A DNA stretch of 64,000 bases from Marsupella aquatica (lineage: Eukaryota; Plantae; Marchantiophyta): NCBI GenBank assembly GCA_973895155.1, contig OZ316895.1, positions 13,379,186 through 13,443,185 on the forward strand. The letters run 5' to 3'. The notes under the pieces are model-generated. The model had not been told where the DNA came from, did not search any database, and saw only the letters and a program-made list of their open reading frames with translations. The position numbers and the translations under genes are program-made. Of this stretch, positions 1-64,000 are shown piece after piece. Position 1 is the stretch's first letter. The number at the start of each line of letters is the position of its first letter.

Positions 1-3000
1 TCCAGTGGAGATCTCGGCAGTGACAGGCCTGCGCTTAATGCAGCCACCAGCGCACATGTGAAAGTTACAGAGGTATGCTTTTCGGAGTTGTGCACCATAT
101 TTTCTTAAAATCACCCTCAAGTCAGGAGAAACCAGTCACCTATTTAGAGGATTCTCGCTAATCTCTTTATGATGGTACATGTTGATGTTAGTTCTCATTC
201 CTTTCCATCGTGCCTTCTTTGTGCACTTTAAGAGTTCCAGGATTGGGATGACTTAACCTGATCAGGTTGAATGGGTTCTGTCGCCTTATTATGTGTATGA
301 TGCCATCCAGGAGCACACGAAGAAGTTATTGGAGGTTGTTCTTCAGCTGCCAGAAAATGAGCTTCTTTTGCAACGCCATTTCGGAGCTCTCCTTACTTCT
401 GTCCGGAACATGATAGCGAAAAGGAAGGCCGGCATTGGGAAACCTGTTGTTCCTGGAAAGGGGGTCACCAGTACACAGGGTGGAGATTTCGTCTCGCTTT
501 CAAAACTCACCAAGCTTTCACTGTCAGCTCATCTACCAATTTCAGAGAAGGCTGGAAGCCTAAAATCTTCAAGTGACATGCAGCAGTCAGTTGCAAAGGC
601 ATTGAACGATGTGGAAGAAGCTGAAGAACGTCGATCGAGCATCGTGAAGGATTCTCTTCTCCTACAGCCTAAAAATATTGTCGATAAGGAACGTCATCTG
701 GAAGATGACAGATTCAACATACTAGAGTTCTTGAAGGTAGATGCTGCTTCTGGGAGCCCATCCGATGACAGTGCCGACCTGCCTTCGTCGAAGTATAAAG
801 CTGTTTCGGCCTCTGTTGAGGATCTTCTTGGATTGAAGCTACCGACTGCCCCTCTTCCTCCTCCAAGTGCTCTCCGGAATTATGCGGAGAACAATGCAGA
901 TCAACGATTCAGGTATGCTTACCAGGGAAATGAAATTGATTTGTCTGTCGTTGCAATCTGTCCCTGCTTCATGAAAATCAATCGTGAAAGAAGCAATAGT
1001 CTGAGGAATTCCGCCGCCCCCCTCCCGCCCCCCTCCCCCCTTCCCTCCACATGATTTTTTATCACAGTTTAAGGTATCAGTTAATCTGTATCCGAAGATT
1101 CATTGCCTTGTTGGATAGGAACTCATCTTAAGATGGCACTTAACAAGATTGCTAATGATTTTCGTGATAGAGATCACTTAAAGTCACTGCGTCAACTTGT
1201 CATTAGTATCCATGTGGTGGTGTACTTTAGATAAGTTACCACTCGGCAAATTTACTCGTTGTAGCTCTTCAGTAGAATTGAGATAAACTGGCTCCTCGGA
1301 GTAAAAATCTCCTTAGCCTTGAAAGTTAGAACCCGATTGAACTCATTCCATTTATGATTGACCTAAAATGGCTAGAGATACAATACGAGCAGGAATGAGC
1401 TATTATACGTAATGTTCCAAATGCAACATATCTTTCGGATGTCCAGCTACATTTGTGGGGTCCTTCAATCCGATCTTTGCAGTTGGAGAACAACTTTAAC
1501 AATTCTGTAGTTATTATAAATGTGACCCTTATGCCGTTGTCCTGAGGCGCTACAGGAACGCTTATACCCACAAGGGATTCTCTCTTAAAAACCGGAAATA
1601 GAAGATGAAGAAATGTGCGTTGGTGAAGATAAATACGATTTTCCTAGTGTGCAAGTCCTCCCCTCCCAATCAGTCACTTGGTAGTCAATTGTTTCGGCTA
1701 GCCCTCAGGTGGATGACAATGCCTTAAGTGAAGAAAATTTATGGCAATGCCCTCCAGCAAAAGATACTCTACTCCACAGGTCGTGAGGAGGAAGTGCACT
1801 TCTCCTGTAGAAGTAAGTTTCCAATTGTTTCCTCCGTAAAGATGTAACTGTAGCTGCCACATAATATCCGAAAGCTAATCTATACGTCTGATAATTTAAA
1901 TTCTTTGCAACGTAGGAGTCAACCGGGATTACGAAGCTTAAATACCTTACTGGCTGCACCTGATTTCCGCTAGTCTTGACCTAACACAGCTAATCTTCAA
2001 TTAAGGTTCTGTAATTCTCACGGTTATCCTGAAGCACCTAAATAGGTATCGTTAAGCTTCAAGTAAACACTTGAACAAATGCCGTCAGTCATCGATGTTT
2101 CGTCCTTCGAATATTCTTCAGTCTCCTCTGTAGTTTTGCTCTATTAATGTAGAGCAAGAATCTAGCAGAGCAGGGTGCACAGTTCCTCATGTCTAGCCAA
2201 CTTTCTCTCAGATTGAGAAGCTGTGTTCTCACCTTAGGTCATTTGCTGTGTCTTATCAGTTTAGAGTTAAGACGGTAGGTCTTCAATGTTGTATGGAGTG
2301 CACTCAAGAGTCTTGCTTCCTTTGCAATGCAGGGCTGCAATGAATGGTGGATGGGGAGCTGGACTATATGAATGGGCAGCTGCTGCTTTATCTGGGTTAG
2401 GCTCGTCGAGTATGCCTAGAGGTAAAGCCAAGAAGCGACCTCCTCCAGCAGATTCTAACAAACCGCCTAAACCAAAGCAACCACGAATATCAAATGCAGG
2501 TAAGAAAGGGCCTGCTGAAAAGAATACTCCAAAGAGTCCTCAGCCTGCCAATAAGAAAAAGAAGAAAACTTCATCTGCTGGTTCAGAACAACCTCCTGAA
2601 GATGCCAGGAATCTCGCAGCAAATGTGAATGGAGCTGAAATCTCCGATAAGAAGGATAATCTTGCACCAGAGAAGCAGATATCCAAGGATGTCACTGGTG
2701 AGAGGGCCGATAACCGGGAGACAACTGAAGTAGGTGACGGTGCAGCTGTTCTGAAGGGTGCGAAAATACCCCCCCCGGGGTCTTTCACACCCGCAATAAA
2801 ATCATCTAAAGGCAAAGCTCTCAAGCCGAAAAAGAAACCGTCCTCCCCAACTAGCTCATCGAAGAAGGGTACCAAATCAAAGTCCTCTGCGCAGAACGTC
2901 AGTGGTTCCAGCTTAGAAGGTGGAGTATCTGGAAGGCTCATCCAAAAGACTGCACCGTCTGGTGATGCTCTTGCTTCCTATCCTACTGGTGCTTCGGCTC

Positions 3001-3902
3001 TTCACGACTTCAATTCTGGGACCGATGATGGGGTTATAACCGGAGTTTCGGTTTTATCTGATGTAGGCCCTGACATCTCACCAAATCTAGTCCCTGATGC
3101 TGGAAAACTACTTATTCAAGGAGAGGTGGGGTCTGATGTACCGGGGATGAATGAAAGACAGCGGCGTGGAGAAGCTGCCCCTTCTCGTGTTTCCCAGAAC
3201 ACTGGACTAGATATTTCCTCAGCTTTGGCGAACTTGGGGCCTAACGTAGACGGAGAGACTCTTGGGACTCCTCAAAGTGCCAGGGTGCAAGTGAAAGCTG
3301 GAGCGACACCAGATGCCGAGAAAGCATCCGGTACCCCCAAAAGCAGGAAGGGGGATACTTGGGTTCCACCTGCCGAGATGTTGGCACCTATGGGCCCATT
3401 TTCCAGTCTCGCGCATCCGGATTCTGCGCAGAAGTTGTTGGCAGATATGTCCAGGAGGGCACCTACTTCTGGCGAAGGTCCTGCTTCACTATTGGATACT
3501 TGGGCCGCTGAACCAAACTTGGGCGAAATCTCTGGACTTAGTCCTACTGGAAGCTTTCCTATGCCAGGTGCGGACTCGAATGTCTATCATCTGGACAGCT
3601 ACGACAGTCCTATGAAAGTTGGAAGTAATTATTTCCTTCTTCAAGAACAAACCGAAATGGAGCTGCCTCAAATGTCCTCCTTGCATGAGATTGATCCAGG
3701 GGAGGAAGCCTTCTCATCACCTTCCTTGGCCAAGACTGTGCGACCCAAATCCTCAGACCTGGATACGTCACTTCATAGCAGTAGTCATCACAGTAGATTA
3801 AATTTAGGTGGTAGTCCTGGCCAAGGGAGGGAACAACGTGCGTCTGCTGGTTCGAGACCAACGTTGCGGAGTACATCACCACACCAAAGACCTAATCAGT
3901 AG
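1..3902 (+). CDS. PIE1: 3' portion of PIE1/SWR1-like SNF2 chromatin remodeller (partial, starts upstream of window); exons approx. 1-72, 311-912, 2333-3902
   Basis: GT-AG splicing keeps frame and gives ...HVKVTE/EHTKKLLEVVLQLPENELLLQRHFGALLTSV...QRF/RAAMNGGWG. This resembles my recollection of the post-SANT region of Arabidopsis PIE1 (KVTEDNIRTLL...EMLLQKHFSCLLSSI). Last exon is low-complexity and ends at TAG 3900-3902. The ATPase domain is outside the window. Confidence 0.7.
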
Positions 3903-8300: not shown

Positions 8301-10062
8301 CTGTTTCCTTAAGAAGAGAAAGTTTACCACAAATAGCTCTCGTGCCTCTCCGAGCCCAGATGCCTTCCACTTATACTTTCTCCGAAGCTCACAAAAGCTG
8401 TCATTGAGGCTCTCAGTCTCCTTGTTGAGGAAACTCAAATACTTCAGTAAAGAGCTGGGATACCAGGGCAAGTAAGCTGCTATACTCGCAAGCCTAGAGC
8501 CATGATGAGGAGTTGCATAAAAGAATACACCCCTCATATTGAGAAGAAACTTGTGAAGAGCATCTTCTGATGATTTGGAATTGTAGATGCTCTCTGCCTT
8601 TAGACAAACTTGCTTAATCACCAGCCCACCCAAGCTGTGTCCCACCAGTATCACTGGATTCGTCTGGCCCACTCCTGATGCACAATAGTACATTTTTAGT
8701 TTTCTGTACGGGTCCACTCACTCGTAACTAGAGCACAACTTCTTTCATGTTTACTATTTGGGCAAGGGGTGCCAAGTACCGTCTCGTTGCCATTTTGTAG
8801 TGTCTGTCCCTCCCCAATGTAGACCTCCATGAATTTAATTCCATTCTCTCTTCTGATTGCCTGAATAATATCTCTACGACAATTTGTCCTCATTTGTAAT
8901 AATGGCCACCAAAGAGACATAAAAGATGGACAACTAACCTGCTTGACAGACAAGAAAGTCCAGCAGGCTTTCTCCAGTAGCCTCCATATCCCTATTGCCT
9001 TGCTTGGACCCTCTGATCGCTGATGAGTCGTAAGAAACCGAGAGGATTCGAGCTTGGGGGAAATCATGAGCCAGCCAAGCCTGTGGCCAGCACTCATCTC
9101 CCTTTGCAGACAACCACGTTTCTGTATATGCTGTGGAATAGTCTTGGGCTTGGAGGCCGTGGAAAAAGACAATGTCAAGGTTGGAAGCAGCAGAGGAAGG
9201 CTTGTAAAGCTCATACACGGCATCGTTGAGCTGAAAGTTGATGCAAACGGACAAATACCAGAACGGAGCAAACAAATGATTTTTAATAATCTCAAGGGCT
9301 AATTTACTAAACATCGCGAATCCTCCAAAATGTAACAATAGATGGCTATTTATCGTATTCCGAACATGACATGAAATTTATCGCCTAATAGAGCTGACTT
9401 GCGGCTATACACGAAATTATATTTTCTTTCAGATCGACGCGCAAACTAGCAGGCTGTTCTCTTCAACGCAGGACTTTTCTAACAAAGGGCTGCGAGTGAG
9501 TTTATAGAACAGACACAAATAGGACCAAGCATAATAACCATGCTCGACACTTAAGGTTGATTTAAACAGATTTTCTATTGCATTGAAACAGGAGCATCAC
9601 AAGAATTCCAACTAGTCTGAGTTGGACAGTTTCTTTGAGCTCGTCTGAAATTGTTTCAGCTCAACTCAGAGGAGCGTAAATTCTTGTACCGCTCCTGTTT
9701 TCACTGCAGTACAAAATCTGGAACAGAGCAAACTTGAATACATGAACAAGGAATCTATTAGGAAGAGAACTCCACAGAGAATAGACATCTGAATCAAAAC
9801 AGGACGAACTGATCACTGCCAACTCTCTCGACAAAGAGAGATGCAATGAGCCCACAGGATCTGGTGACGGTAAGTTCAAGATTTCCAAGGCAAAGCACAA
9901 ATTCACACATCTGCAATGCAATTAGAGAAACTCCATTCCAAGATCTGATTTTGTGATGTGGGCGGTTGCGGTAGGCGCTCTTCTAACCTTTGTGGGTCGA
10001 GCTGTGGACACAGGCACATGTGGAGCAGGAGCTTCAGCGGAGTTGAGCATTGTCATGTCCAT
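5313..10062 (-). CDS. alpha/beta-hydrolase-NB-ARC-LRR immune receptor (HNL class); exons approx. 10062-9988, 9230-8939, ~8675-8326, ~8170-8020, ~7767-6720, ~6573-5313
   Basis: Hydrolase motifs DIVFFHGL, RILSVSYD, GHSLGG, FFYATPHHGS and DHVTICKP. NB-ARC motifs GAAGIGKTT, VLLVMDDV, GLPLAL and THDLLRDLG. About 10 LxxLPxSFGxL LRRs. The first exon (MDMTML...PTK|gttag) and the 3' end are less certain. Confidence 0.88.
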
Positions 10063-48152: not shown

Positions 48153-49568
48153 CTAGCCTGATGCCCGTGCGTTGCACCAAAGATTTTGAGGTGAGAGCAA
48201 GATGTCAAGGAGAAGGCAAGATTTCAAGGCGAGGCAAAAGATGTTGAGGTGAGGGCAAGAGGTCGAGGTGAAAAAGAGATAGGGAGGTAAGAGAAAGATG
48301 TTGAGGAAGGGCAAGATGTCAAGGAGAGGCAAACATAAGGAGCTGAGGTAAAGATGTTGAGGTGAAAAAAGATGTTGATGAGAGAAAGGGATGTTGATGT
48401 GAGGAAAAGAAGCCAAGGTGACAAAAGGAGGTCAAGGAGAGAAAAGGTGGCAAGGTGAAAAAAAGATATAATGATGAATAAAAGATGTCAAGGAGAGAAA
48501 ATATGTTGAGGGTGACGGAAAGATATTGTAGTGAGATAACAATGTCAAGGTGAGCAAAAGGTAAGATGTCGAGATGAGAAAAAGATGTCAAGTAAGGTGA
48601 AAATAGATGTCGTGGTGAGCTAAAGATGTCAATGTGATAAAAAAAATGGTGAGATGAGAGAAAGATGACAAAGTAAGGTAAAATTGTTGTGGTGGGCCCA
48701 GAGAGGCATGACTTTGTGGTAGCTCACTTGAGTAAAGACTGATAGATCTTGGGTTCAACTATTATGGTTGACTCTTCCCTTTCTGTGGGGTTTCACAGAT
48801 TTCTCTTAAAATTTAAAAAATAAAATAAAATAAAAATTGTTGTGGTGGTGTTTAATAACAGGCGCCTTGCACATAGAAATTGAAGCCGCAAGATAAATAC
48901 TACTGCATCTATTCAACCCATAATTATTTTTTTACCCAAAATTTTCTGGCCTCCCTATTTCCCCCCTCTCCCATCCTCTCCCTTTCTTTCCTTGCTTTCC
49001 CCTCTTGCCCTCCTATTGCCTCGTCCTTCCTCCTCCCCCCTTTTTCTTCCCCTTAACACCATTAAAAAGATTTTAAAAGGAGTTAAAAAATGGGAAGAAA
49101 AGACAATTAACCGCCAAAAAATGAAATCTCCTTTTTAAGAGCAAAAGGTAAGATAATTTAATGTCAATCTACTCTACTTGGGTACTTCCCCTTTGGTACT
49201 TCCCCTTAGTGCTAGCTCCATGCCAAAAACCATTATATGTAGTCAATTTATTTTCATGTTAATGCTCCATGCCAAAATGTACTCTAAATAGTCCATAAAA
49301 TAATTTACTTACACTTTAATGCTCCATGCCAAAATGTACTATAAGCAAGCTGCAAAATAACTACAATAACACATTCAATTATTCTACTACACAGTATATC
49401 TACTTTGTACTATGAATTAGAATCGATCTTAGGTACCCATCATACTCAATCCAAGAGCCTTAAATAATTTTAGAAAGTATCTAACGGCTGAGCACTGTTC
49501 CCTCATGTTTTCATTTTTGTAACGGGACGATGAACAAAATTGGCAGGATTTGTTAATATAGTAGTAGA
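48153..49568 (-). mobile_element. Non-autonomous Helitron (~1.4 kb) with internal ~20-bp degenerate tandem array (~48180-48680)
   Basis: Minus strand starts A|TCTACTACTATATTAA (49568) and ends with hairpin GTGCAACGCACGGG then CATCAGGCTAG|T (48153). These are the canonical TC...CTAG termini in an AT target with no TSD. Confidence 0.78.
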
Positions 49569-50266
49569 TTGTTTTTTCTTGCATTGATCAAACACTAATA
49601 TCTGTGTTTGTTTCTTGTTGAGAACATCATTGTTCCTGTTTGGGATTGAACTTGATAATGTGGATCAATGTGGTGCTAAAGATTTTGGAAGGAGCTTCCA
49701 TGGGGGTCCATAAATATCTAGTTAGTGGGGACCAGAATTTTAATCATGATCTATTTCTTGTGTAAACCTAGGTGGACTACTTTGTGTGAAGCACCAAGGT
49801 TGATTTTAGCAGATGTGATGAAGTCAGACAATGGAGGGTATGGGAATACCTCAGTCTGCAAGATGCAAGCTATCTATTTTTTGCTTTGCTCTTTTTTTGC
49901 CAAAGTCCCTACTGTAGGTTACTTTAGTATTAAAGCCAGGTAAGTCCAAAAAGAAATTTCAAAAGGTGCATTGTTCATGCACAACTATTCTCCTTGTTAT
50001 CTCATGACTTTATCCCCCATTTTGCTAGCATATTCCTCTTTAGCATAGTATCTTTTGGATATTTTTAGCCAGAAGCTTTATTCACTATCACAAGTGATGT
50101 ACAATCTCACATGGCACAGTCATGGACAAAGCAAAAGACATAGAGTAAAAGTAGGATCCCTCTCCCTCCCTCTCTCATCCCCCTGTCCTCATTGTTTGTG
50201 GATTTTCCAGTCGCATCATATAATTTAGAGAATTTATGTCTCTATGGGTTACTAAATATTCCAAAG

Positions 50267-50617
50267 TGTCATGCCGAGGGACAGTGCCGCTTGTGCACAT
50301 CGGCATGTCCCTCGCATGCCCGCTAGGTATGGTTAGGGCTAGTGTACTACTTGAGTTAGTGTCATGTTCTTGTAGCGAGTCTGGGCTGTTCTTGAGGTTT
50401 GTTAGTGTGACGCCTGGACCCGGTCCTACTTAGGGCATGTTTTTCTTTGCCGTTCTTCAGTTCTTCTTGAATCGCTGTGAGACAGTTTTTCAGAGGCTGC
50501 TCGTCGATTCCGTACACGGAATTCACACAGTGATTCGTTAGATGCTCCCGGCCGATCTTGGCATCTCGCCGGTTTTCGATTCATTTTCAGTACGTTTGTT
50601 TCTATCACGCCTTTTAT
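50267..50617 (+). repeat. Repeat A1 (351 bp), 5' terminal repeat
   Basis: Near-identical to 59491-59843 apart from a 2-bp indel and a small change near the 3' end. Confidence 0.95.
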
Positions 50618-50630
50618 TCAAGAAGAACTG
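50616..50630 (+). promoter_or_regulatory. Putative self-priming primer-binding site
   Basis: ATTCAAGAAGAACTG is the exact reverse complement of CAGTTCTTCTTGAAT at 50458-50472 inside repeat A; no TGG-type tRNA PBS follows A. Confidence 0.7.
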
Positions 50631-53600
50631 CCGAGTTAGCGGTGAGGAGAAGAAGTTTGCTCGTGGCAATTTCGACAATTTCTGGTGAAGCCATTGCAAT
50701 TTCTTCGACGGACATTGGAGTGACGAGTTAAAAGTTATGGGTTTATTGTGGTGTTATGTGTATACTTAAGTGTATACACATAACAAGGGACCCGGATTAT
50801 TATTTTCTGGCCGCAACTTGTTTCGCGACTTGCTGTTGTCGACTGCTGCATCGACGCCGACTTCAAAGGGCGCACCCACGCTCGCATTTTTAACGACCTC
50901 TTTGGGGCCCTTTTTCGTTTACCGGCCACTACTGCCTCGGCCACCGTGCGCCCCTTTTCTTTCGCCCTTTTTCGCCTTGCCAATCCTCGAAGTTCCTCCC
51001 TCCGTTTGTTTTCCTGCCTTTTTCTTCTCTCGGTATCTCGCAGGCTATGCGCATAGGGCATCGTGCCCTCCCACTGGCAGCATTTAATTAACGAGAGGAG
51101 GGGGAGCGAGTGCAAGCCGGGAGGAGGAGGCACAGAGGCTACGAAGCATTAAAGGGGGGGGAGTACATTCGACTCCCTCTCTCGGGACTCCTGCCAATCA
51201 CGAGGCCCAACTTACAGGGCATTAAAGGAGGGGAGGGGAGGGGAGTTCAATTCGAACTCCCTCACACGGTGACACAGGAGTCTTTTTGCAGGGCACGAAG
51301 CCCATCCAACAGCATTAAGGAGGGGGAAGCAACAGGAGGGCACGAGGCCCTATGAGGAATTAAAGAGGGGGGGAGTACTCGCGACTCCTCTCTCGGGAGT
51401 CACTCGCTGCCAGGGCACAAGGCCCAAAAGGGGGATAGGGGGAGCTCATAGTGGGGCACGAAGCCCTATGCAGGGCCCGAGCCATTAAGTTGTCACCTCG
51501 CCTCAGCCTCGCCTCGCCTCGCCCTGCAGCATAGGGTACCGTGCCTCCCGAGTGTGCGTACACCTGCTTCTTTCCGGCCTCTTTTTCTTCCAGGGAGCCC
51601 GACGATGTATCCACATTGGGCACTGACCGGTGCCCTTTATGTGTATACACAGACCCCTGTCACCGACCAGTGCCCTTTATGTGTATACACAGACCCCTGT
51701 CTATACACATAACGGAGGCCCCTTTTGACCATTTCCTCTTGTTTTCTTTCCATTCATTTTCTTGTGAGCATATTTTCGGCAGGGCCGGTCTACACATTTC
51801 TGCCTCGCAGTGTTGTTTCCTTTGTGGGTTACATTTCATAGCCTTGGGGTTGCCACACCTTTTTCTTGTCAGTTTCTTTCCTATTGGCACCCCGGGTGAG
51901 CATGCAGCATGTCAGCAGAGGAGCCGAGTCGTAGCAGCTCATCGCCACCGACACCCCGGTACCACTTACGGAGTGATCCATGACCGTTGGTGCCAATTTC
52001 ATTGGAGTCTCGGCAATTTCGACGACGTCCACAGACAGCAGCAGCACCCACACCACGCAATCCTCCTGCTACATTTGGCGGTCGCTTCACCACTACTCCG
52101 AAGCCTGCTATCACTTCATTGCCATTTACCCCTTCTACATCCGTGGTTGTTCCTGCTTCACCGACATATAGCATGGACGCCAGCCACTCATCTGGCCGCA
52201 TTGAACGCTTCAGCGGGCGGCCAGGCACTGTTTCTTTACGTGAGTTCAAATCCACTTTCTACACTATCGTTTACGAATTGGAGTTGAAGTACGGCAGCAA
52301 TTTCACAAATGCTTTTGCATTTAAGCAGCTAGCCAGGTATGTGCACCACGAGGCTTTGGATGTGTATGAGCAGCACTCTCAACGGCTGCTTGCTGTCACA
52401 CAATTGCCTAACCCTGCCTATGCCAGTGCAATTGCGGCTGCCTCACAATTGGCATTACAGAATGCCATTGCAGCCCATGCTGCTGCTCCTGCCACTTCCC
52501 CTCCTACTCCAGTTCCTACCACTGCGCCAGTTACTCCCACTATCTTGGCACAGGCTACATCAGGCATTTCTCCCACCATTGATTCCCCTGCCTTTGTTGA
52601 TCCAATGGCTGAGTTTTTCCAGGTTCTTGAATTGGAATTCCCAATCAAGAGTGCTGACAAAATCATGCAGTTGGCGACCTTTGTGAGGCAGCGCGATGAA
52701 ACCTTGAAGATGATGTATCGTCGGCTTCTTAAGCTGAAGGAGGACACCCAGAGCATCACTGACCTGGAAGCTGCTCATCGTTATCTTCGCGCATTGGAGG
52801 GCACACCAGCTCTCCATTCACAAGTGTTGCAGCAAGTATTCTCAGAGTTTGGAGACAGCTACACATTGCTCAATGTCTACGACACTGCTGAGAAACTTGA
52901 GTTGGCCCATGCACATTATGAGGCCAGTATTGAGCGTCCACCGCGATCTAGGTACCAGGCTGCTGCTCCTACAATGGCCACCCCTTCCCGTGTGCCACAG
53001 TATGCTTCCAAGACCAAACCAGCACATGCTGCTTTCATGCTGCCCTCTTGCAACTACTGTGGCAATCCTAATCACAAGGCTAATGAATGTGATATTGTTG
53101 CTGAGGACCTGTCTTGTGATTTTTGTGGGAAAGTGGGCCACTTGGAGGCAGTTTGTTTTGCCAAATTCCCAGAGAGGAAGCAGCTACGACAACAGGCCAC
53201 TCATCCTACTCCTGTTTCCACTCCCCCACCAGCTAGGAGGGCTCCTACTGCATCAGTTGCTCCTCCTTCCAGTGGCCAAGCAACCAGTGCCAACAAATTG
53301 CCCAAGCAGCCACAGAAGCCCCCAACTCAAAAGGAGGCTCACAACGCACAGGCAACTCAACTCCAGTCTCTAACTCATGAGGTTGAGTCCTTACGTGCCC
53401 AACTTGCCAACATCAAAGGCAAGTCCACTGCCTCTGCTGGTCCTTCTCAACCGGCTGGTCACGTGCAACCCATCCCTGGCCCAGGCACCGCTGACAGTTC
53501 AGCACCTCTACCCCGCTCTTTCTATGGCTTACCATTTGATGCTCATATGGGTGAGTGTGTGCTGTCCTCTGCTCCACAGCCTGGCCTTACAGCAGAATTT

Positions 53601-54999
53601 TCAGATTCATTCTGCCCTTCCTATTTTGCTTACCAGCAGGCCAGTGCTGCCTCCCGTATTGCTCCCACACGCCGCATTGTACAGGCTGATGGTCTTGCTG
53701 CCGGTCCTATGACTAGAGCCAAGGGAGCTCGGGCTATCATGCCCCAATCTTTTCAGCCACTCACACTTGCTGAAGAGCGCACCTTGTTGGCGAGGGGGGA
53801 GGGAGCTGCAGCTACATCCATTCCACCACCAGGTGCTGCTGACATTTCACAGGGAGTTGTTTCTCCTGAGCTGCTTGAGCATTTCACCTTCGGTATGGCA
53901 CAAAGGATTCTTACAACTCCACTTTTCAGTTGCCATGATTTACAGCTGGATGCTAGAGCTGTCCTCAGGGCGCTAGAGGGTTCACTGCATTCTTCATCAG
54001 CCCCTGTGACACCGGTTTTGGAGGTCCAATCTCATGTACATACTGGACCTTCTTCTTCTCCTTTACATGTTTCCACTGGTTTGGCTGCCCCAGTACCGAT
54101 TGCTGCTGATTGTGTGACCAGAGCTACACTTGATTCTGGTCATGCTGCTCCATCTTTCCTGGCTATGTTGTTGAGTGGAAAGACCGTGGACACTAACTCC
54201 CTTCACAAGGTACCTCATCATTTGCCGAGAGTGGTGCCTAGTGACAGGACTTCAGTTTCCACCACCATTGCCATTGTTGACAACAGGAATTCAGTGGTCA
54301 AGTTGGAGGGTCACACTCCTCAGGTGGTCATGCTAGACACAGGTGCTCAACCAGTGATATTGGGCATTCAGTTTGCCAAGAAGATGGGACTGTTGACTGA
54401 TCATTTACAGCAATCCAAGTGGCACATTCGGACTGCTAGTGGCACTGTGGAGGATGTGCTGGGTGAGAGTTCTACTTTACTCACTCTCACTTTTAATGGA
54501 GGTACAGATCAGGAATTGCATTTCCCAGTCAGATGTCTGGTTACCAATGCCACTACGTATGATGTGCTCATTGGCCAGGAGGCTTTGTTCCCACCAGGTT
54601 TTACCATTGACAACTGGCATGAGCATGCATACTACAGAGTTGATTGGCATAGTGATGGCTCACACTTGGGCTACATTCCACTTGATTTGCATGGTGCCCA
54701 TACACCTATGGCTCACCACTGTGTGTTGAAAGCAGTGCACACAGCTACCTATGTCAACCACCCATTGCAAGATTGGATTGAGGAGGATGACGATGAGGTG
54801 GCTGCTGCACATGCTGCTGCACGTATAGCAGCACTTTCCAGCAACGTGGATCATCAACCAGAGGTGGTACAACGGCTCCAAGCAGCCCATGGACCTTTGG
54901 TGGCTGCATTGCGCAAGTTTGAAGACCTTGGGCAGCACAATGGACAGCCAATAGCCCCAATCTTGAGCGCACCATTTACATGGACTCCTGCTCCGGATG

Positions 55000-55940
55000 G
55001 CCTTACATTGCTTGAGCTTTTTGGTGGCATTTCTACAGGCCTGGAAGCTCTCCTACAGTCTGGCATGGTGATGAAGCAGTACATCTATGTGGATATTGAT
55101 CCAGGTGCAAGGCAAGTGACTGAATCCCGTCTGCTGGAATTTTCAGAGCGATTTCCTCAGCAGTTCCCACACAGTGCATGGAAGTCTGCATTTTCTTTCT
55201 TTCCTTCAGATATCCAGCTTGTCCAGCACCGGCACTTAACCCTTCTTGGCTCCCTTGATTTGATCATAGCTGGTTGGGAATGCCAAGGGTTTTCAGCTGC
55301 TGGTCACGGTGCTGGACTTCATGATTCTCGTTCTGGCCTTTTCACAACATTGGCTCAGATTCTCACCTGGGCTCAATCCCTTTATCCTGCTGTTGGTTAT
55401 ATCATTGAGAATACTCCATCTCAGTTTGACCAGCGACCACAGGTCAAAGAGGATTTCAGTGTGGTCCAGCACTACTTGGGACCACCCCTTCTCATTGATG
55501 CAGTGCACTGTGGTTCTTATGCACATCGTCTTCGTAACTTTTGGACTAACCTTGCACCACCTTCCTTGTTGGAGTTAGCTCTTCACCACACATCCAGGGA
55601 CACTAACCTCACAGTGGACCAGATTTTGGATCCTGACAGTTCTTGCCAACCAGTTACACGGCAAGAGCTAGCACCTTGGTATCCAGCCAATACCATTGGA
55701 CAGCCCCGTGCTGCTTGGCCTACATTTGTGTCCTTTCCAGGTGCACATGCTTTTCAGGGTGATGGTCCTGGCCTGGTTTACCGACATTCTACCGGTACAT
55801 GGGATGAACCTAGTCCTGAGGAGAGAGAACGAGCTATGGGCTTCCAATCCAGTACTACAGGTCACACCCAGATCACCAGGCTGGCCAGGAATGCTTTACT
55901 TGGCAGGGTAATGGATCTCAATGCTCTCACTTGGCTTCTG
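55000..55940 (+). other. DNA cytosine-5 methyltransferase domain (DNMT3-like) within the retrotransposon polyprotein
   Basis: Motif I LLELFGGISTG, II YVDID, IV DLIIAGWECQGFS, V DSRSGLF, VI IIENT, VIII AHRLRNFWTNL, IX/X ERERAMGF...TRLARNALLGRVM. Confidence 0.88.
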
Positions 55941-58900
55941 GTCACTTGCATCCTTTTTCAGATGTCCATTCCTCCAGCATCAGGAGTTCCAGTTCTACCA
56001 CTCCATGGTGCTGCTACATGGCATCCAGACCAGGTGCACTTACCTTTGTCCAACACTCACCACTTCAGTCCCAGTGTTGGGGGGGAGGAGGTCCCTTGTA
56101 ATGTGGCTGACATTATTTCTGAGTTTCATGGTGTGGATCAGACCAGAGCAACAGATACAGCAGGCCTTGGAGAGGCCTCATCACCTTATCAGCAGCATGC
56201 TAGCAGCTTGGATAGTGGAGAGGCTAGCACTTCTGGCTCTTCAAGCACGAGTACATCAGGTCCTATTCCTAGTGTTGCGAACTACACATTTATCATGGGC
56301 AACCACTTGAGTAAAAGACAAAAGGACCAGCTGCTGAATTTGCTCCTCAAGCATGAGAATGTGTTTGCTTTCTCTATGAAGGACTTGGGTAAGTGCAAGA
56401 CTATGCAGTTCTCCATTGAGTTGGCTGATGAAACACCTATCTTCAGGCGGAGACACCGTTTGAGTAAGCATGAGTGGCAGTTGGTGGATGAGAGGTGCCA
56501 AGAGCTCTATGAAGCTGGTCTTATTCAGCCATCTACATCAGATTTTGCGGCAGCTACAGTGATGCCAGCAAAGAAGGATTCCAGTGGATTGTGGACAGAG
56601 AAGCGCATGTGTGGGGACTACAGGCCACTAAACCTGGTCACACCCCAGGACAGGTACCCCATGCCACGGCCAGAGGAGCTATTTGATAGCATTGGAGACT
56701 CAAACATCTTCACTCTTGTGGATCTAAGGCAAGGCTTTAACCAGATTTTGCTGCTTGCAAAGGACCGCAAGAAAACAACTTTCTATGGTAGTAACCAACT
56801 ATGGGAGTGGTTGGTGATGCCATTTGGCTTGAAGAATGCGCCCATATTCTTTCAAAGAGTCATGGACCAGGTTCTTCAAGGTGCTGAGTTTCTGAAATGC
56901 TACATTGATGATGTGTTGGTCCACAGCAAAGGATTTGACCAGCATCTACTTGACCTTGAGGAGCTATTCATGAGGCTTAAGAAGGTGAACCTAAAGATAC
57001 ACCCCAAGAAGTGTGAATTTGCTGTCAGATCAGTAGTATATCTTGGGCATCGCATTCTTCCAAATGGAACCATGGCTCACTGGGCCAAGGTGGTATCCAT
57101 CTTGGAAATGCCCACTCCTACCGATGTTCACACTTTGAGGAGTTTTATTGGGTTGTGCAATTACTACCGAATCTACATCAAAGATTTCAGTACCATTGCA
57201 CACCCATTGTATGCTTTGTTGAAAAAGAATGTGACTTGAACATGGAGTACAGATGCTGAGGCAGCATTTGCCACTTTGAAGGAGAAGCTCTCAGAATACC
57301 CGGTGTTGAGAAGACCTGATTTCAGCAAGGTCTTTGTGTTACACACAGATTGGAGTGCCCTTGGGATTGGTGCCATTCTGGGCCAGCATGATGAGGAAGG
57401 TAAAGAGTACGTCATTGCCTATGCATCCAGGAGCAACAATCAGGCAGAGAGTCATTATTCTTCTTATGAGGGTGAATGCCTTGCTGTTGTGTGGGCTGTC
57501 ATACATTATAGGCCCTACCTCTATGGGACCAGGTTTGTTCTCTACACCGATCACCAGCCCTTGAAGTGGTTGATGACCAACGACAAGCTTACTGGCAAGC
57601 TTGCTCGTTGGGCGCTCATACTCCAGGAGTATGATTTTGAGGTAATTCATAGGCCTGGTGTGACACATCAGAATGCTGACACTATGTCCCGCAGCCCTTT
57701 GATTACCTCTGATGATTCCTCAGATGCACGGCAAGATTTTGACCAGGCTTCCATCCTGCCTACATTTCATGCATCGACCTATCTTGCTTTGCTGCCATGC
57801 TATGTTGTTGACCAACCTGTGGTGGACATATGGGAGGACAGCGACACTCTGAGATTTCTGCAGCATGGGGAGTACCCCTCACATGTTACTGCTGCCCAGA
57901 GAGACCGAATTCAGCAAAGGTCCAAGCGCTACTTGTGGAAGGGAGATCATCTCGTGCGTTGCTTGCCAGACAGGGAAGTGGTGGTTCCACCTATTCATGA
58001 GAGGGTTGGCCTTATCCGTAAGGTACATTCTGAGCTTGGTCATTTTGGTGTTAAGAGGACTTACAGCCTCTTGGTCCCTCATTATCATTGGAGAGGCATG
58101 CATGGCCAGGTTCGAGATGTTATTGCCCGGTGTGAATAGTGTGATAGGGTGAGGACTTCCTTCACATCTCGACAACCCACACTTCATCCACTCCCTATTC
58201 AGGGCATGTTTTATCGTTGGTCATGTGATTTGGCTGGAGAATTACCCCTCACGTCTCGGGGTAATCTCTACATCATGATCATGATAGAGCATTTCTCCAA
58301 GTGGATAGAACTTGTGGCATTGCCGGATAAGACCTCCCATAGCACCAGCCAGGCATTCCTACAACAAGTTCTCAGCCGCTTTGGAGCTTGTGCAGAATGT
58401 CTCACTGACCAGGGCTCAGAGTTTAGAGGAGAGTTCCAGGAGCTGCTTGATCAGGCCCTCATTGATCATCGCCGGACATCACGAGATCACCCACAGGCAG
58501 ATGGCTTGGCAGAGCGCATGGTTCAGACATGCAAGAAGGGCCTTCGGAAGATCTGCCTCACCAAAAACAAGGAGGATTGGGACCTGGCCTTACCCTACAT
58601 TGCCATGGGGTATAGGATGTCCAGACATGCATCACTGTCTAACTTTTCTCCCTACTTCTTGTTGTTTGGTCGTCACCCAGTTCCACCTTCTGCTATTGCT
58701 TCTCACATGTTTCAAGTGGTGGACTTGGATTCAGTTGTGACTTGGTCTGATGTGATCTCTGAGAGGGCTGCCCTATTCAGGAGGGTTATGCCCATGGCCA
58801 TGGAGAATTTGGCCATTGCACAGCACAGGGACACACTGCGTTATGCACACACACGAGGGGGCACTTTTCAGCCCAAGGTCAGGAAGTTTGAAGTGGGAGA

Positions 58901-59120
58901 TTTTGTGTACTTGCAGCGGCAAGCTAACGACACCCTGGACACCTCTACCAGTCGCACTATTCTCAGGGTCAAAGCTATTCGACCGTCTGGAGTGCTAGAG
59001 TTACAAGGGGCAGATGGGCGCACAATTGCTGACAATGCCAAGAATTGCGCCCCTTGTCATCTGCCTAACCTGGATCCCACCATTGTGACTTCTACTTGGA
59101 TTCCACCTGTGGACTACCCT

Positions 59121-59255
59121 TGCAAAGTGTGTTTGCGAATTGATGATGCTGACCAGATGCTGCTGTGTGACAATTGCAATGGAGGGTACCATCTTTTCTG
59201 CCTTCGGCCTGAACTTACCCAGGTGCCAGAAGGGTTATGGTTTTGCCCTTCCTGT
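59121..59255 (+). other. PHD finger at the integrase C-terminus
   Basis: CKVC...MLLCDNCNGGYHLFCLRPELTQVPEGLWFCPSC (C4HC3). Confidence 0.92.
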
Positions 59256-59305
59256 GCTCCACGTGCTATCTGACTTTTCTTCAGGCCTCCTTTTGGCTGT
59301 GGTCT

Positions 59306-59312
59306 GGGGGGG
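59306..59312 (+). promoter_or_regulatory. Polypurine tract (G7)
   Basis: GGGGGGG directly abutting the start of repeat B1. Confidence 0.6.
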
Positions 59313-60019
59313 ATACAGAGGTTTACACCTCCACTACGTACATACCACCTCAGTTGCTTTTTCTTGGCACCTGTGAATGTGATTGGACTTTTTCTATGCA
59401 TGTTGGTTGCTAGCAACTTGCACATATGCATTGCCGGTGACTTGTATGTTTTTGATACACTATGGCTACGATACTATATGTCACGACAGCTGTCATGCCG
59501 AGGGACAGTGCCGCTTGTGCACATCGGCATGTCCCTCGCATGCCCGCTAGGTATGGTTAGGGCTAGTGTACTACTTGAGTTAGTGTCATGTTCTTGTAGC
59601 GAGTCTGGGCTGTTCTTGAGGTTTGTTAGTGTGACGCCTGGACCCGGTCCTACTTAGGGCATGTTTTTCTTTGCCGTTCTTCAGTTCTTCTTGAATCGCT
59701 GTGAGACAGAGTTTTTCAGAGGCTGCTCGTCGATTCCGTACACGGAATTCACACAGTGATTCGTTAGATGCTCCCGGCCGATCTTGGCATCTCGCCGGTT
59801 TTCGATTCGATTTTAGTACGTTTGTTTCTATCACGCCTTTTATATACAGAGGTTTACACCTCCACTACGTACATACCACCTCAGTTGCTTTTTCTTGGCA
59901 CCTGTGAATGTGATTGGACTTTTTCTATGCATGTTGGTTGCTAGCAGCTTGCACATATGCATTGCCGGTGACTTGTATGTTTTCGATACACTATGGCTAC
60001 GATACTATATGTCACGACA
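59313..60019 (+). repeat. 3' repeat block: B1 (59313-59488), GC, A2 (59491-59843), B2 (59844-60019)
   Basis: B1 and B2 are both 176 bp with 2 substitutions seen; A2 matches A1. Confidence 0.95.
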
Positions 60020-61224
60020 AAAGCCTTGAATCATGATCTACAGAATATGTCCACCACACATGGATGTGGTGGGCATCCATGTGTCCCTTGCAAACTTTGT
60101 TATGACACTAGATATGAACCATTAGATCATCATATTATTGCAATGCTACAGTAGATATTCATTTCTTTTTTTTCTCCTTTCTAGGTTTTTGTGGTTTGCA
60201 TCATTCTTTTGAGTTTAGTTTGTGTCCTCTCTAGACCTCTTTTGCTCTTACTCGAGTGGACTTTGGCTGGCTCCTCTTCATAAGTTGGTCCTTTTTCCTT
60301 CTTTGTGGTAAAAGAAAACCTGAGTGACAATGTCATGACAAACGAGAATCTACTGCTTTGCTAGAATCACTCATGAGGGAGGATCATCCCTGGACCAAGT
60401 TATGACAGTTGTGATTATTTGAAGGATAAAGAGAACTCTCCCATGCAAAACAAAAGAGGAGTTACTTCTGTAGTGGCGATTCAACAAAAAAGGTGTTTTG
60501 ATTCCTATTCATGCACAATGGGAGCAGTCATGAGGGCCTTTTTAGATTACCCTGCAGTCTTCCCCCAAACAAAGCACCATGGAATGTGTTCAAATAGTGG
60601 GCCACGGGGCACTCTATTTGAATAGTGGGCCTGGGGTGTTGTGTTCAAGTTTTGACTAATTATTTGTTTTGGTTTTTTGTACTTGCAGTGTTGTGTCCAA
60701 AAATTGCTGTTCTGATTGACTATGGGTATTGTGTTTGAATTTTGGAATTGCGAGATGAATTAACCTTGGCTGTAAGGAGTGTTTGAGTTCATGCAAGCTC
60801 TTTTACTTCCCCACATTACCTTACAAATCTGAAGTTTACTATTGTGACCTAGCAAAACACGTATGTGAAACATGCATATTTTTGTCAGGGAATAGTTCAG
60901 CATGTGATGTGTCTAAAATAACGTACTGACTCTTAAAAATTGCTCTAAATGGCCACATTATCAACTGAACATAATAGATATTGTAAACATAACTCTTTGC
61001 TTGCCCACCCCCCCCCCCCCCCACAAAAAAAAAAACAAAAAAAAAAACTTTTCTCAAAGTGACGATTTACTAGGGACCTTGATCATCAAAATTTGACAAC
61101 ACTGGAACTTGTCACACCATTCTAGGTAGTGTTAGAGTGTATCGTACTATCTAGATCCGTATGTTTGGTATGTATGCTATATGAGCCAATAAGGTTCTGT
61201 TAGGTTTGTGTGAGAGGGTACTTC

Positions 61225-61811: not shown

Positions 61812-64000
61812 AAGGCTGGACAGATTGTTGAGCAGGAAGGGACTGCTCAATCTACTGCTAAATAGCAATCATCGGCTATCTCTTCTACCCTACAAAGGGA
61901 AATATGGGATTTGGTGGAGAGTTGGGAACCACAGCTTGGCCCTAAGTTGATTGGGGAGGAGAGACGTTGCATGCATCGATTCCTGAAGAGTTACTGGAAT
62001 TGTTTTGCATTTAGCATGAAAGATTTGGGGACATTAAAGGGTCATGGTATTCAGATTGAATTGGCTAGTGATGCGCCAATCTTTCGTAGGCCATACCGTT
62101 ACAGTGACATGGAGAGAGCTCTGATTCAAAGTAGAACTCAAGATTTGTTGGAGGCTGGATTGGTGGAGATTTCATATGGGGAGTATGCATCTGCCACAGT
62201 GATGCCAGCCAAGAAGGATGTGCATGGCAATTACACAGATAGGCGCATGTGTGGTGATTACAGACCCATTAATCGCCAGACAAAATCTGATAGATATGCC
62301 ATGCCCACACCTGAGGAGATCTTTGATGCTGTGGGGCATGCAAAGGTTTTCAGTTCATTGGATCTGAGGGGTACCATCAGCTTCCAATTAGGCATGCTGA
62401 CAGGTCCAAGACAGCATTCTGGGGGATTGATTCTTATGGCAAAGATCGTTTATATCAGTGGTTATTCTTACCATTTGGGTTGAAGAATGCACCAGCTGAG
62501 TTCCAGAGAGTCATGGATCGAATCCTTGCAGGTTTGGATTTTGTCAGATATTATATTGATGATATTTTGGTCTATTCTTCTACCGTGGAAGAACATCAGC
62601 AACACTTGCAGATTGTGTTGGAGAGATTGAGAGCACATTGATGGGTTGAAGCTCCATCCTAGCAAGTGTAAGTTCTTCCAAGACCAGATTGAGTATTTGG
62701 GCCACACTATATACCCAGGGGGATTGGGTGTACAGCAGACTAAAGTGGAGGCCATTACACAGATTCCTTGTCCTACTGATGTGAGTAGAGTTTATGCATT
62801 CTTGGGATTGGCGAGCTACTACAGGAAGTATGTTAAAGGATTTAGCCAGCTTGCTAAACCTTTGACCATACTCACTAAGTTGGATCAGGAATGGATTTGG
62901 GGTAATGACCAGGAGCATGCCTTTCAGGAGTTGAAGCAAAGGTTGGCATCATCCCCTATTTTGAGAAGACCCATTTCAGGTAGACCATTTCAGCTACACA
63001 CTGATTGGAGTGGAGTAAGACTTGGAGTAGTGCTGACTCAGAAGGATGATGAGGGGAATGAGTTTGTTGTGGCTTATGCCAGTAGATCAAACAATTCAGT
63101 AGAGGCTAAGTATAGCTCGTATGAGGGAGAGTGTTTGGCAACAGTGTGGGCTGTTGCATACTTTCGTTGCTACTTGTTTGGTAACCCCTTCACCTTGATC
63201 ATTGATCATCAGCCTCTTAAGTGGTTAATGGAGTCTGACAAGCTTACAGGGAAGCTTGCACGATGGGCATTGTTGTTACAAGAGTATGATTTCCAGGTGG
63301 TGCATAGGCCTGGAAAAGTGAACTTGGATGCAGATGGATTAAGCCGCAATCCATGTACCAGTCAGCAGGATGAGAGTGGAGCCAGATAGCATGATGAGTC
63401 AGATAAGGAGATGGTGCCAGGATGGCATGCATCTGCCTTTCTTTGTTGGGTGCCAGCATACAGTGGATCTGTGGACTCTACCTCATTGGATGGAGTGGAT
63501 GATGAGTCTTTAGATGTGGATGTTGGTGAGGTAACTTCTGGACAACAAGATATTCACAATGATGTGAGAGTGTTGGAATATATGCGCAGTGGTTCTATTG
63601 TTGGCAATGTTGATGCCAAAGAACGTGACAGGGTTCTACAGAGAGCCAAGAGGTTTCGATGGGAGGGAAACCATCTTTTGAGAGTACTGCATGATGGTAG
63701 GGTGTTAATGGTACCAAAACCATCACAACGAGTACATTTGGTGCGACATGCACACGAGGAGTTGGGTCACTTTGGTGTGAAGTGCACTTATAGCTTGCTA
63801 CAGACACAGTATTGGTGGCGTGGTATGCACACTCATGTCCAACAGTTGATAGCTAAGTGTGTGGTATGTGATAGAGTGAGAGCATCATTTAATGCTCCCA
63901 CTCCCCAGTTGCACCCGTTGCCGATCATGGGTTTGGGATATCGTTGGAGTTTGGATTTTTCTGGTCCATTACCTCTTACCCAACGTCATAATCGGTATGT
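61812..64000 (+). mobile_element. Degenerate Ty3/Gypsy pol fragment (RT-RNaseH-IN), runs off the window end
   Basis: Motifs ASATVMPAKKD..RMCGDYRP, YIDD (~62552), YASRSNN..YSSYEGECLA and HEELGHFG..CVVC. Frameshifts near 62370 and ~62640, stop at 63387. Confidence 0.9.

Follow-up and report, generated by a model that had tools for sequence, protein, structure and literature searches.

A Gypsy-type retrotransposon with split direct repeats, and a proposed route for its integration through joined cDNA ends

We analyzed a 64,000-nucleotide (nt) stretch of the liverwort Marsupella aquatica (contig OZ316895.1, positions 13,379,186 to 13,443,185, forward strand; hereafter the window), in which positions 50267-60019 hold a 9.75-kb Gypsy-type long terminal repeat (LTR) retrotransposon with its repeats in the order A-body-B-GC-A-B. 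Our central proposal is that self-primed reverse transcription yields B-GC-A repeats, that the two cDNA ends are joined as A/B, and that the integrase likely cuts the conserved ACA-GC-TGT palindrome nearest the primer site. Taken as a whole, we consider this account probable. The copy itself is a slightly decayed member of a very abundant family.

The repeats were delimited by a repeat search and by BLAST of the window on itself. A1 (50267-50617) and A2 (59491-59843) are 98.6% identical over 353 columns, the differences being 4 gap columns, while B1 (59313-59488) and B2 (59844-60019) are 98.9% identical over 176, with 2 substitutions. Neither search found a further copy of A or B anywhere in the 64,000 nt, and a chance origin of repeats so long and so alike is far beyond expectation. 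The left border reads AAAG followed by TGTCATGCC, the start of A1, and the right border reads GTCACGACA, the end of B2, followed by AAAG; the outer termini are TG..CA, with a 4-bp AAAG target duplication on both sides. Termini and duplications of this kind are marks of DDE integrases, and those seen here fit such an enzyme. The GC between B1 and A2 creates a perfect 8-bp palindrome, ACAGCTGT (59486-59493), and the last 7 bases of B, reverse-complemented, match the first 7 of A at all but one position. A2 passes into B2 without a spacer (TTTTAT/ATACAG at 59843/59844), A1 likewise into TCAAGAAGAAC, and a G-rich tract, GGTCTGGGGGGG (59301-59312), adjoins B1. The join of the flank to A1 is spanned by one contig of an independent sequencing run (X3 record 16, 50000-50294), which reaches 28 nt into A1.

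Of the features usual in a Gypsy element, the TG..CA termini and the short (4-5 bp) target duplication are present; like LTRs at both ends, with a primer site after the 5′ LTR and a tract before the 3′ LTR, are not, the 5′ end being A alone. The order A1..B1A2B2 is that of the split direct repeats of DIRS elements. A first-pass annotation, made from the sequence alone, had described A1, B1-GC-A2-B2, the TG..CA ends and the AAAG duplication, and our borders agree with it to the base. It was also right to call this a DDE-integrase element, which we can further assign to the methyltransferase-bearing Gypsy group. The features of the layout are as follows.

50263-50266, plus strand: target-site duplication, left copy, AAAG (border bases)
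50267-50617, plus strand: A1, 351 nt, starting TGTCATGCC (repeat search); putatively divided into a promoter part, 1-191, and R-U5 from about 192
50458-50472, plus strand: CAGTTCTTCTTGAAT, predicted transcript 5′ end and self-primer, with a second copy at 59682-59696 in A2
50616-50630, plus strand: primer-binding site ATTCAAGAAGAACTG, the exact complement of 50458-50472, with 13 of its 15 nt just past A1
50631-51986, plus strand: untranslated leader with a 40-nt tandem repeat, a 20-nt inverted repeat and no Pfam match
51987-59273, plus strand: gag-pol, a single frame with two in-frame stops (Pfam and motifs)
59301-59312, plus strand: polypurine tract GGTCTGGGGGGG, adjoining B1 and conserved in relatives
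59313-59488, plus strand: B1, 176 nt, starting ATACAG and ending GTCACGACA (repeat search)
59486-59493, unstranded: palindrome ACA-GC-TGT (B end, 2-nt spacer, A start), the likely site of integrase cleavage
59491-59843, plus strand: A2, 353 nt (repeat search)
59838-59849, plus strand: A2/B2 joint TTTTAT/ATACAG, two predicted cDNA ends abutted (border bases)
59844-60019, plus strand: B2, 176 nt, ending GTCACGACA (repeat search)
60020-60023, plus strand: target-site duplication, right copy, AAAG (border bases)

The relatives with which we compared the element came from two scans. In metagenome contigs, 384 of 601 stretches were confirmed and 80 loci (numbered L) with 50-69% protein identity were kept; these represent 67 distinct places, and L030 and L033, which share one flank, were also merged. 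A scan of genome contigs gave one locus, L113, a distant relative with 31-56% protein identity.

A stretch inside A, 50458-50472, has its exact complement in the 15 nt at 50616-50630, and the geometry points to self-priming of the kind known from Tf1. Tf1 uses an 11-nt primer, which is released by an RNase H cut. In the window, the primer complement scored 13/13, compared to 0 of 200 shuffles, and among 30 A1 ends the best 13-mer complement was 13/13 in 11, 12/13 in 8 and 11/13 in 6. Its distance from the end of A is constant, 117-130 nt in most L loci and 158 nt in the window. The same geometry is served by three different primer/site pairs: GTTCTTCTTGAAT with ATTCAAGAAGAAC in the window, TTTTTCTAGAATT with AATTCTAGAAAAA in the L family, and ATCTTTGTCAAGT with ACTTGACAAAGAT (13 nt) in L113. 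L038 and L061 also carry a compensated C>T/G>A change (TTTTTTTAGAATT with AATTCTAAAAAAA). Across 23 aligned sequences, 93.2% of the cells of the helix were paired, compared to 37-62% after sliding by 1-3 columns; 4 pairs were changed on both sides, and the covariation score was matched by 4 of 500 shuffles. In the predicted fold of RNA 50458-50636, nt 1-15 lie on the site in both the minimum free energy and the centroid structures (z -2.8). The element thus has what marks a self-primed, Tf1-like element: a site complementary to a stretch of the upstream repeat, with compensatory change.

The G run adjoins B, and plus-strand synthesis would therefore start at the first base of B. With minus-strand synthesis starting at the site after A, the repeat of the cDNA would be B-GC-A, and the linear product BA-body-BA, with ends ATACAG..TTTTAT. 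The A2/B2 joint would then represent the two predicted cDNA ends put together. The first-pass annotation had also defined the repeat set by reverse transcription as B+A, a view upheld by the covarying self-primer site after A and by the position of the polypurine tract, which adjoins B in the window, in L113 and in all 13 of the places described below that end in B-A-B. It also does so in 11 of 13 places ending in B alone (L065 and L075 differ).

An end was considered readable if at least 600 nt were visible beyond it (upstream for 5′, downstream for 3′). The 5′ end was a lone A in 26 of 26 readable places (3 more were too short); neither B-A nor A-B-A occurred at any of these 26, and A-B-A-body-B was never seen. 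Of 26 readable 3′ ends, 13 were B-NN-A-B and 13 were B alone (2 more were too short). No ordinary BA-body-BA was found in the readable places of the 67, and no isolated A/B unit in the metagenome loci. The border sequences are conserved (A start TGTCATGC, B end GTCACGACA), and in all 15 elements compared the B/A spacer measures 2 nt, either GC or one of AC, GT and AT, which are transitions from GC. In the 14 places with both ends, the 4-bp duplication matched at 4/4 positions in 10 (the window, L003, L013/L015, L043, L074, L063, L067, L038, L070 and L079), at 3/4 in three (L023, L054 and L061) and at none in one (L004). In L113, a G run is followed by a 108-nt B, then by ACGACA-GC-TGTCAC, A and the primer site. 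The A-body-BAB layout is a family-wide trait. Ordinary LTRs in other copies, and hence a one-off event in this one, were the outcome that the first-pass annotation had set against its own reading; we looked for it in the metagenome relatives and it did not appear. The integrated ends that it proposed, A start and B end with TG..CA, are likewise those seen at the places with an intact duplication.

One pair of loci bears on the B-alone form. L013 (5658-15312) and L015 (536-9651) have the same flanks, a CCAA duplication and an odd 15-nt B tail, L013 being B-GT-A-B and L015 B alone, and the single B of L015 is a mosaic of the B1 and B2 states of L013 with no clean switch. Together, these features indicate that L015 is an old B1/B2 deletion, in a diverged haplotype or a sister genome, and the two contigs record one insertion before and after that loss. 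The B-alone end of L015 is thus a later deletion and no separate insertion form, with assembly collapse probably not its cause, and the A-body-B form is at least partly secondary.

Among 14 places, the A/B joint is the sole border that varies in length: 8 have it in full, 4 lack 2 nt, one lacks 1 nt and one has 18 nt more. A joint lacking 2 nt is expected from pairing of the AT common to both ends. The types are mixed within one clade (L013 full, L074 minus 2, L050 plus 18). In the younger elements B1 and B2 are as alike as A1 and A2 (98.9 vs. 98.6% in the window, 94.1 vs. 91.8% in L003, 93.9 vs. 91.8% in L013 and 92.3 vs. 90.7% in L023, respectively), which fits a B2 that is remade in each cycle. 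The variation in joint length, the mixing of types in a clade and the likeness of B1 and B2 all fit a joint that is made anew in each cycle. The view of A2/B2 as joined ends, put forward in the first-pass annotation, gains from this, as the joint varies among close relatives in the way that joined ends would. It should be noted that the 18-nt insert at the L050 joint (8885-8902) looks like part of the A end copied a second time.

We propose the following route. The transcript likely starts near position 192 of A, and its first 13-15 nt would fold back onto the primer site, as in Tf1. Plus-strand synthesis likely starts past the G run, giving the linear cDNA BA-body-BA, whose ends (ATACAG..TTTTAT) seem unsuited to an integrase of this kind. 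Linking these ends would fall to host end joining or to the plus strand itself, through an end-to-end template switch. At the palindrome, integrase nicks just past each CA would leave 2-nt 5′ overhangs like those of ordinary processed ends, and the opened element would insert with a 4-bp stagger. The palindrome adjoining the primer site seems to be the only one used. This polarity may arise because the repeat by the primer site would be double-stranded early, while the other would wait for the plus strand to cross 9 kb; the integrase would engage the early palindrome, and the late-arriving plus strand alone would find a free acceptor end for a switch or ligation. A second route, in which linear cDNA is processed internally to A-body-B, may exist beside this one. 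Paper derivations of A-body-BAB from reverse transcription alone (a rolling circle on a one-LTR intermediate, long 3′ processing, a read-through RNA splint) were tried and set aside, as they yield no A/B joint.

Several points weigh against this proposal. Integration is polar, the cut is not random, and a simple circle model does not give 0 A-B-A among 26 ends. Half of the 3′ ends are B alone, as would be expected of the second route. The complement in 5 of the 30 A1 ends (L014, L029, L048, L051 and L070) is no better than in shuffles, and a tRNA scan of the 64-kb window found no tRNA gene, leaving no host tRNA there to compare as a primer. In the older elements L043 and L074, B1 and B2 are 73 and 80% identical, compared to 90 and 86% for A1 and A2, and the clade tree has little resolution, with 7 of 11 inner branches drawn open and 0 starred. 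In addition, the relatives are old copies taken from metagenome assemblies, in which B-A-B could have been collapsed to B; for L015, its mosaic B argues otherwise. Finally, every step beyond the logic of the sequence is one that we infer.

The closest alternative is a free two-LTR circle cut at random at either or both B/A sites, giving A-body-BAB, ABA-body-B and A-body-B. Such a circle explains A/B as the circle joint, the palindrome and two of the three predicted forms, and cleavage of circle junctions by integrase has a precedent in vitro. Each circle would hold two identical palindromes, however, and random choice therefore predicts A-B-A-body-B as often as A-body-B-A-B, whereas ABA-body-B was absent from the 26 5′ ends, compared to 13 B-A-B among the 3′ ends. 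To attribute this to collapse of A-B-A requires that every such copy collapsed while 13 B-A-B did not, and no isolated A/B unit was present in the loci. We therefore regard random cutting as unlikely. The permuted-provirus model of the first-pass annotation survives in its B+A repeat, its joined ends and an integrase acting at an internal site, which together remain the best supported account, and fails in the random cutting of a circle, since the cut is polar. Similarly, two of the forms that it foresaw, A-int-BAB and A-int-B, were found and the third, ABA-int-B, was not; as to A-int-B being a product of integration, the form does exist (13 of 26 3′ ends), but the sole case that can be traced, L013/L015, is a later deletion.

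Reverse transcription alone might instead build a linear A-body-B-GC-A-B, for example from a read-through RNA containing A2/B2 with extra template switches, followed by ordinary integration. This would account for the polarity with no need for host ligation, and no clear poly(A) signal was seen by eye in A or B. But with a plus-strand start past the G run and a minus-strand start after A, no DNA 5′ end is possible at the A start or the B end; A2 is not preceded by a purine tract nor B followed by a primer site, the length of the joint varies, unlike that of a templated joint, and such a path could not be constructed on paper, leaving it a slim chance. Slimmer still are the prospects of an integrase that processes linear BA-body-BA at internal sites, with A-body-B as the primary product and the extra A-B added by unequal exchange or gene conversion. 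The 13 of 26 readable 3′ ends with B alone suit this idea, as do the four B-alone places in which both ends are present, with a duplication matching at 4/4 in L038, L070 and L079 and at 3/4 in L061. An A-body-B lacking a downstream R could not be recopied, yet the family is hugely amplified; L013/L015 is one insertion in both forms, B alone being derivable from B-A-B by deletion; A2 and B2 match A1 and B1 of their own element, not foreign copies; and B-NN-A-B recurs in 13 separate places besides the window. It is very improbable that the element moves in the manner of PAT, Ngaro or TOC1, by a tyrosine recombinase acting in trans with the DDE integrase not setting the ends. The repeat layout is indeed that of these elements, as they are described in PMC8547959 and PMC4157794. 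However, no recombinase domain was found in the 3 main or 51 other open reading frames (ORFs), the TG..CA ends and 4-bp duplication mark DDE integrases, the core has D,D35E, and most of 102 relatives of the methyltransferase part carry an rve domain. That an ordinary LTR element was rearranged once here, or the locus mis-assembled, has nothing in its favor but the oddity of the layout. The probability of this is practically negligible: the layout recurs in 13 other places, L113 has the order polypurine tract-B-GC-A-primer site, the figure legend cited below describes it for Klebsormidium nitens, and the locus itself shows exact borders, an intact duplication and one contig across the flank and A1.

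The layout has been published before. The legend of Fig. 4c in de Mendoza et al. (2018, PMC5890265) describes KnitGypsy-Dnmt3 of Klebsormidium nitens as having repeats as in a DIRS element and the domains of Gypsy, and what that paper says of this element includes no primer site, polypurine tract, ends, duplication or mechanism. Like KnitGypsy-Dnmt3 as described there, our element has the Gypsy domain set, a Dnmt3-type cytosine methyltransferase in Pol and A-coding-B-A-B repeats; it differs in host and in sequence, the likeness being known from the published description. With a DIRS-like A-coding-B-A-B arrangement on Gypsy domains, the element is one more of the Gypsy-DNMT3 elements with split direct repeats already known from print, and the first-pass statement that this layout typifies tyrosine-recombinase elements, not Gypsy, had already been overtaken by that legend. 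Our literature search, which sought a mechanism as well as further cases of the layout in Gypsy, gave only this legend and a passing mention of 'Gypsy-DNMT3' of streptophytes in a 2026 preprint, the older Goodwin and Poulter papers on PAT and Ngaro lying outside the search. What is new here is a proposed mechanism for the layout, none having been found in print.

Elsewhere, A1-[ORFs]-B1A2B2 is said to characterize tyrosine-recombinase elements (PMC8547959, PMC4157794 and PMC7192593). PAT, TOC1, kangaroo and Ngaro share the order A1-body-B1A2B2 with our element and are described as having an internal B1A2 that is an image of their two outer ends. They have a tyrosine recombinase and no DDE integrase, however, whereas here the reverse is true, with TG..CA ends and a 4-bp duplication in addition. 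PMC6317226 reports self-priming as known in the Tf1/Sushi group and as a prediction for the Tcn1 clade, which occurs in mosses and club mosses. As in those accounts, our element has no tRNA-type primer site, and the site after the repeat complements a stretch inside the repeat; unlike it, those elements have ordinary LTRs, and the likeness is one of priming geometry.

The proposed cut has a parallel in retroviral integrases, where a DDE enzyme likewise cuts an internal CA..TG palindrome made of two att ends, as we suggest happens here. Foamy virus integrase reportedly cleaves the palindromic junction of two-LTR circles. Tetramers of HIV-1 integrase cleave such a palindromic junction in vitro, according to PMC1905944. 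In retroviruses the palindrome forms where the cDNA ends are ligated, and integration this way is a side path at best; in our element, by contrast, the palindrome is templated inside the repeat, the ligated A/B joint would not be the cut site, and the route would be obligatory. In the copy-out-paste-in transposition of IS3 and IS911, bacterial DNA elements that move with no reverse transcription, a DDE enzyme acts on abutted ends with a spacer of a few bp in a joined intermediate. The abutted ends and the short spacer are shared with our element, but the bacterial host and the absence of reverse transcription are not.

In the textbook scheme, the ends of the linear cDNA are themselves the substrate of integrase, and two-LTR circles are treated as dead ends. 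The sequence logic here is the opposite, in a large, old and successful family. By extension, a whole clade of DDE-integrase LTR retrotransposons in green algae and early land plants would be unable to insert by the ends that reverse transcription gives them, and would have to join their cDNA ends and have the integrase open a templated internal palindrome with fixed polarity; we give this wider claim an even chance. If true, it would be a natural and obligatory form of the old circle-junction integration model and would show a DDE integrase working on an internal palindrome in vivo; a retrotransposon would then depend for its life cycle on host end joining or on an end-to-end switch by reverse transcriptase (RT). 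It would also explain in concrete terms how split direct repeats can arise separately from those of the tyrosine-recombinase elements, an account that could be tested in Marchantia or Klebsormidium, as the family has relatives in model plants. It would matter for annotation as well, since LTR finders built to look for two matching repeats would mis-call these very abundant elements and their A/B or B-alone derivatives.

The coding content is that of a single gag-pol frame (51987-59273), interrupted by in-frame stops at 57237-57239 and 58137-58139, with the following domains.

53049-53156, plus strand: gag zinc knuckles, two CCHC (motif)
54297-54587, plus strand: aspartic protease (Pfam)
about 54954-55976, plus strand: C5 cytosine methyltransferase, between protease and RT (PF00145; motifs LELFGG, WECQG, ENT)
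56595-57056, plus strand: RT (Pfam RVT_1)
57318-57632, plus strand: RNase H (Pfam RT_RNaseH)
57990-58136, plus strand: integrase zinc domain, H2C2 (Pfam)
58212-58493, plus strand: DDE integrase core (Pfam rve; D,D35E)
59121-59255, plus strand: PHD finger, integrase C-terminus (Pfam)

The order protease-RT-RNase H-integrase with a DDE (rve) core is that of Ty3/Gypsy, and the C5 cytosine methyltransferase inside the Pol ORF is that of Gypsy-DNMT3. Pfam E-values were 2.9e-27 for RVT_1, 3.6e-39 for RT_RNaseH, 1.5e-13 for rve, 5e-12 for PHD and 7.1e-6 for DNA_methylase (PF00145; 26.1 bits vs. a cut-off of 22), and D,D35E was read by eye from the translation of the core. Pfam searches found no tyrosine recombinase, as a DIRS element would have, in the 3 main ORFs or in the 51 further ORFs of at least 70 amino acids (aa) on both strands; nothing in these 51 was above cut-off, the lone sub-threshold match being WSLR (20.2 bits vs. 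27). At the stop at 58137, every mapped contig of runs X1-X3 differs from the window, among the matches listed, indicating that this stop is private to the window copy. The PHD finger ends the integrase where chromoviruses have a chromodomain and is common to most of the 102 relatives. CpGs occur in the palindrome and at both outer ends, and in old copies of relatives they have often decayed to TG or CA, which fits genomic methylation of these sites.

The 102 relatives of the methyltransferase part are 962-3063 aa long and most have rve and PHD. The named sources are Marchantia, Sphagnum, Closterium, Haematococcus, Monoraphidium and Chromochloris, the nearest named relative being from Marchantia (42%); none of the 102 is named Klebsormidium. 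Matches in viral contigs (32 loci, all short, 27-54% identical to the methylase part and within long contigs) were not used.

Copy number was viewed through the contigs of four public sequencing runs mapped onto the element; they are very short over the repeat, and among the mapped contigs listed none bears on the A/B, B/GC/A or A/primer-site joints. The element is hugely repeated: word depth in run X1 was about 72,000-186,000 over 52064-59287, compared to 1,100-3,300 over the leader (50688-51719). The depth over the leader, 30-100x below that of the body, indicates that the leader varies strongly among copies. The mapped contigs show many skip and go-back joints there, and the leader (50631-51986) contains a 40-nt tandem repeat (51621-51700) and a 20-nt inverted repeat with its arms 263 nt apart (51052/51335). 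About an eighth of the sampled words of the element sits in four air-metagenome runs, from which we draw no conclusion.

The record that contains L113 is filed as a cyanobacterial metagenome-assembled genome, probably through eukaryotic contamination of the bin. The first and last 127 nt of this 9285-nt contig (1-127 and 9159-9285) are identical, and it therefore closes as a circle of the body plus one B-GC-A repeat, which may be a genuine one-LTR circle or the result of the assembly cycling through a repeated element.

Elsewhere in the window, three copies of a 49-57-nt tandem repeat lie at 49215-49358, in an AT-rich flank about 900 nt upstream of the element. On its other side, 61812-64000 holds a second, older Gypsy fragment, with nothing resembling gag, protease or methyltransferase upstream of it. 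This fragment covers RT, RNase H and the start of the integrase in a broken frame, with 42-61% protein identity to the first element, and runs off the end of the window.

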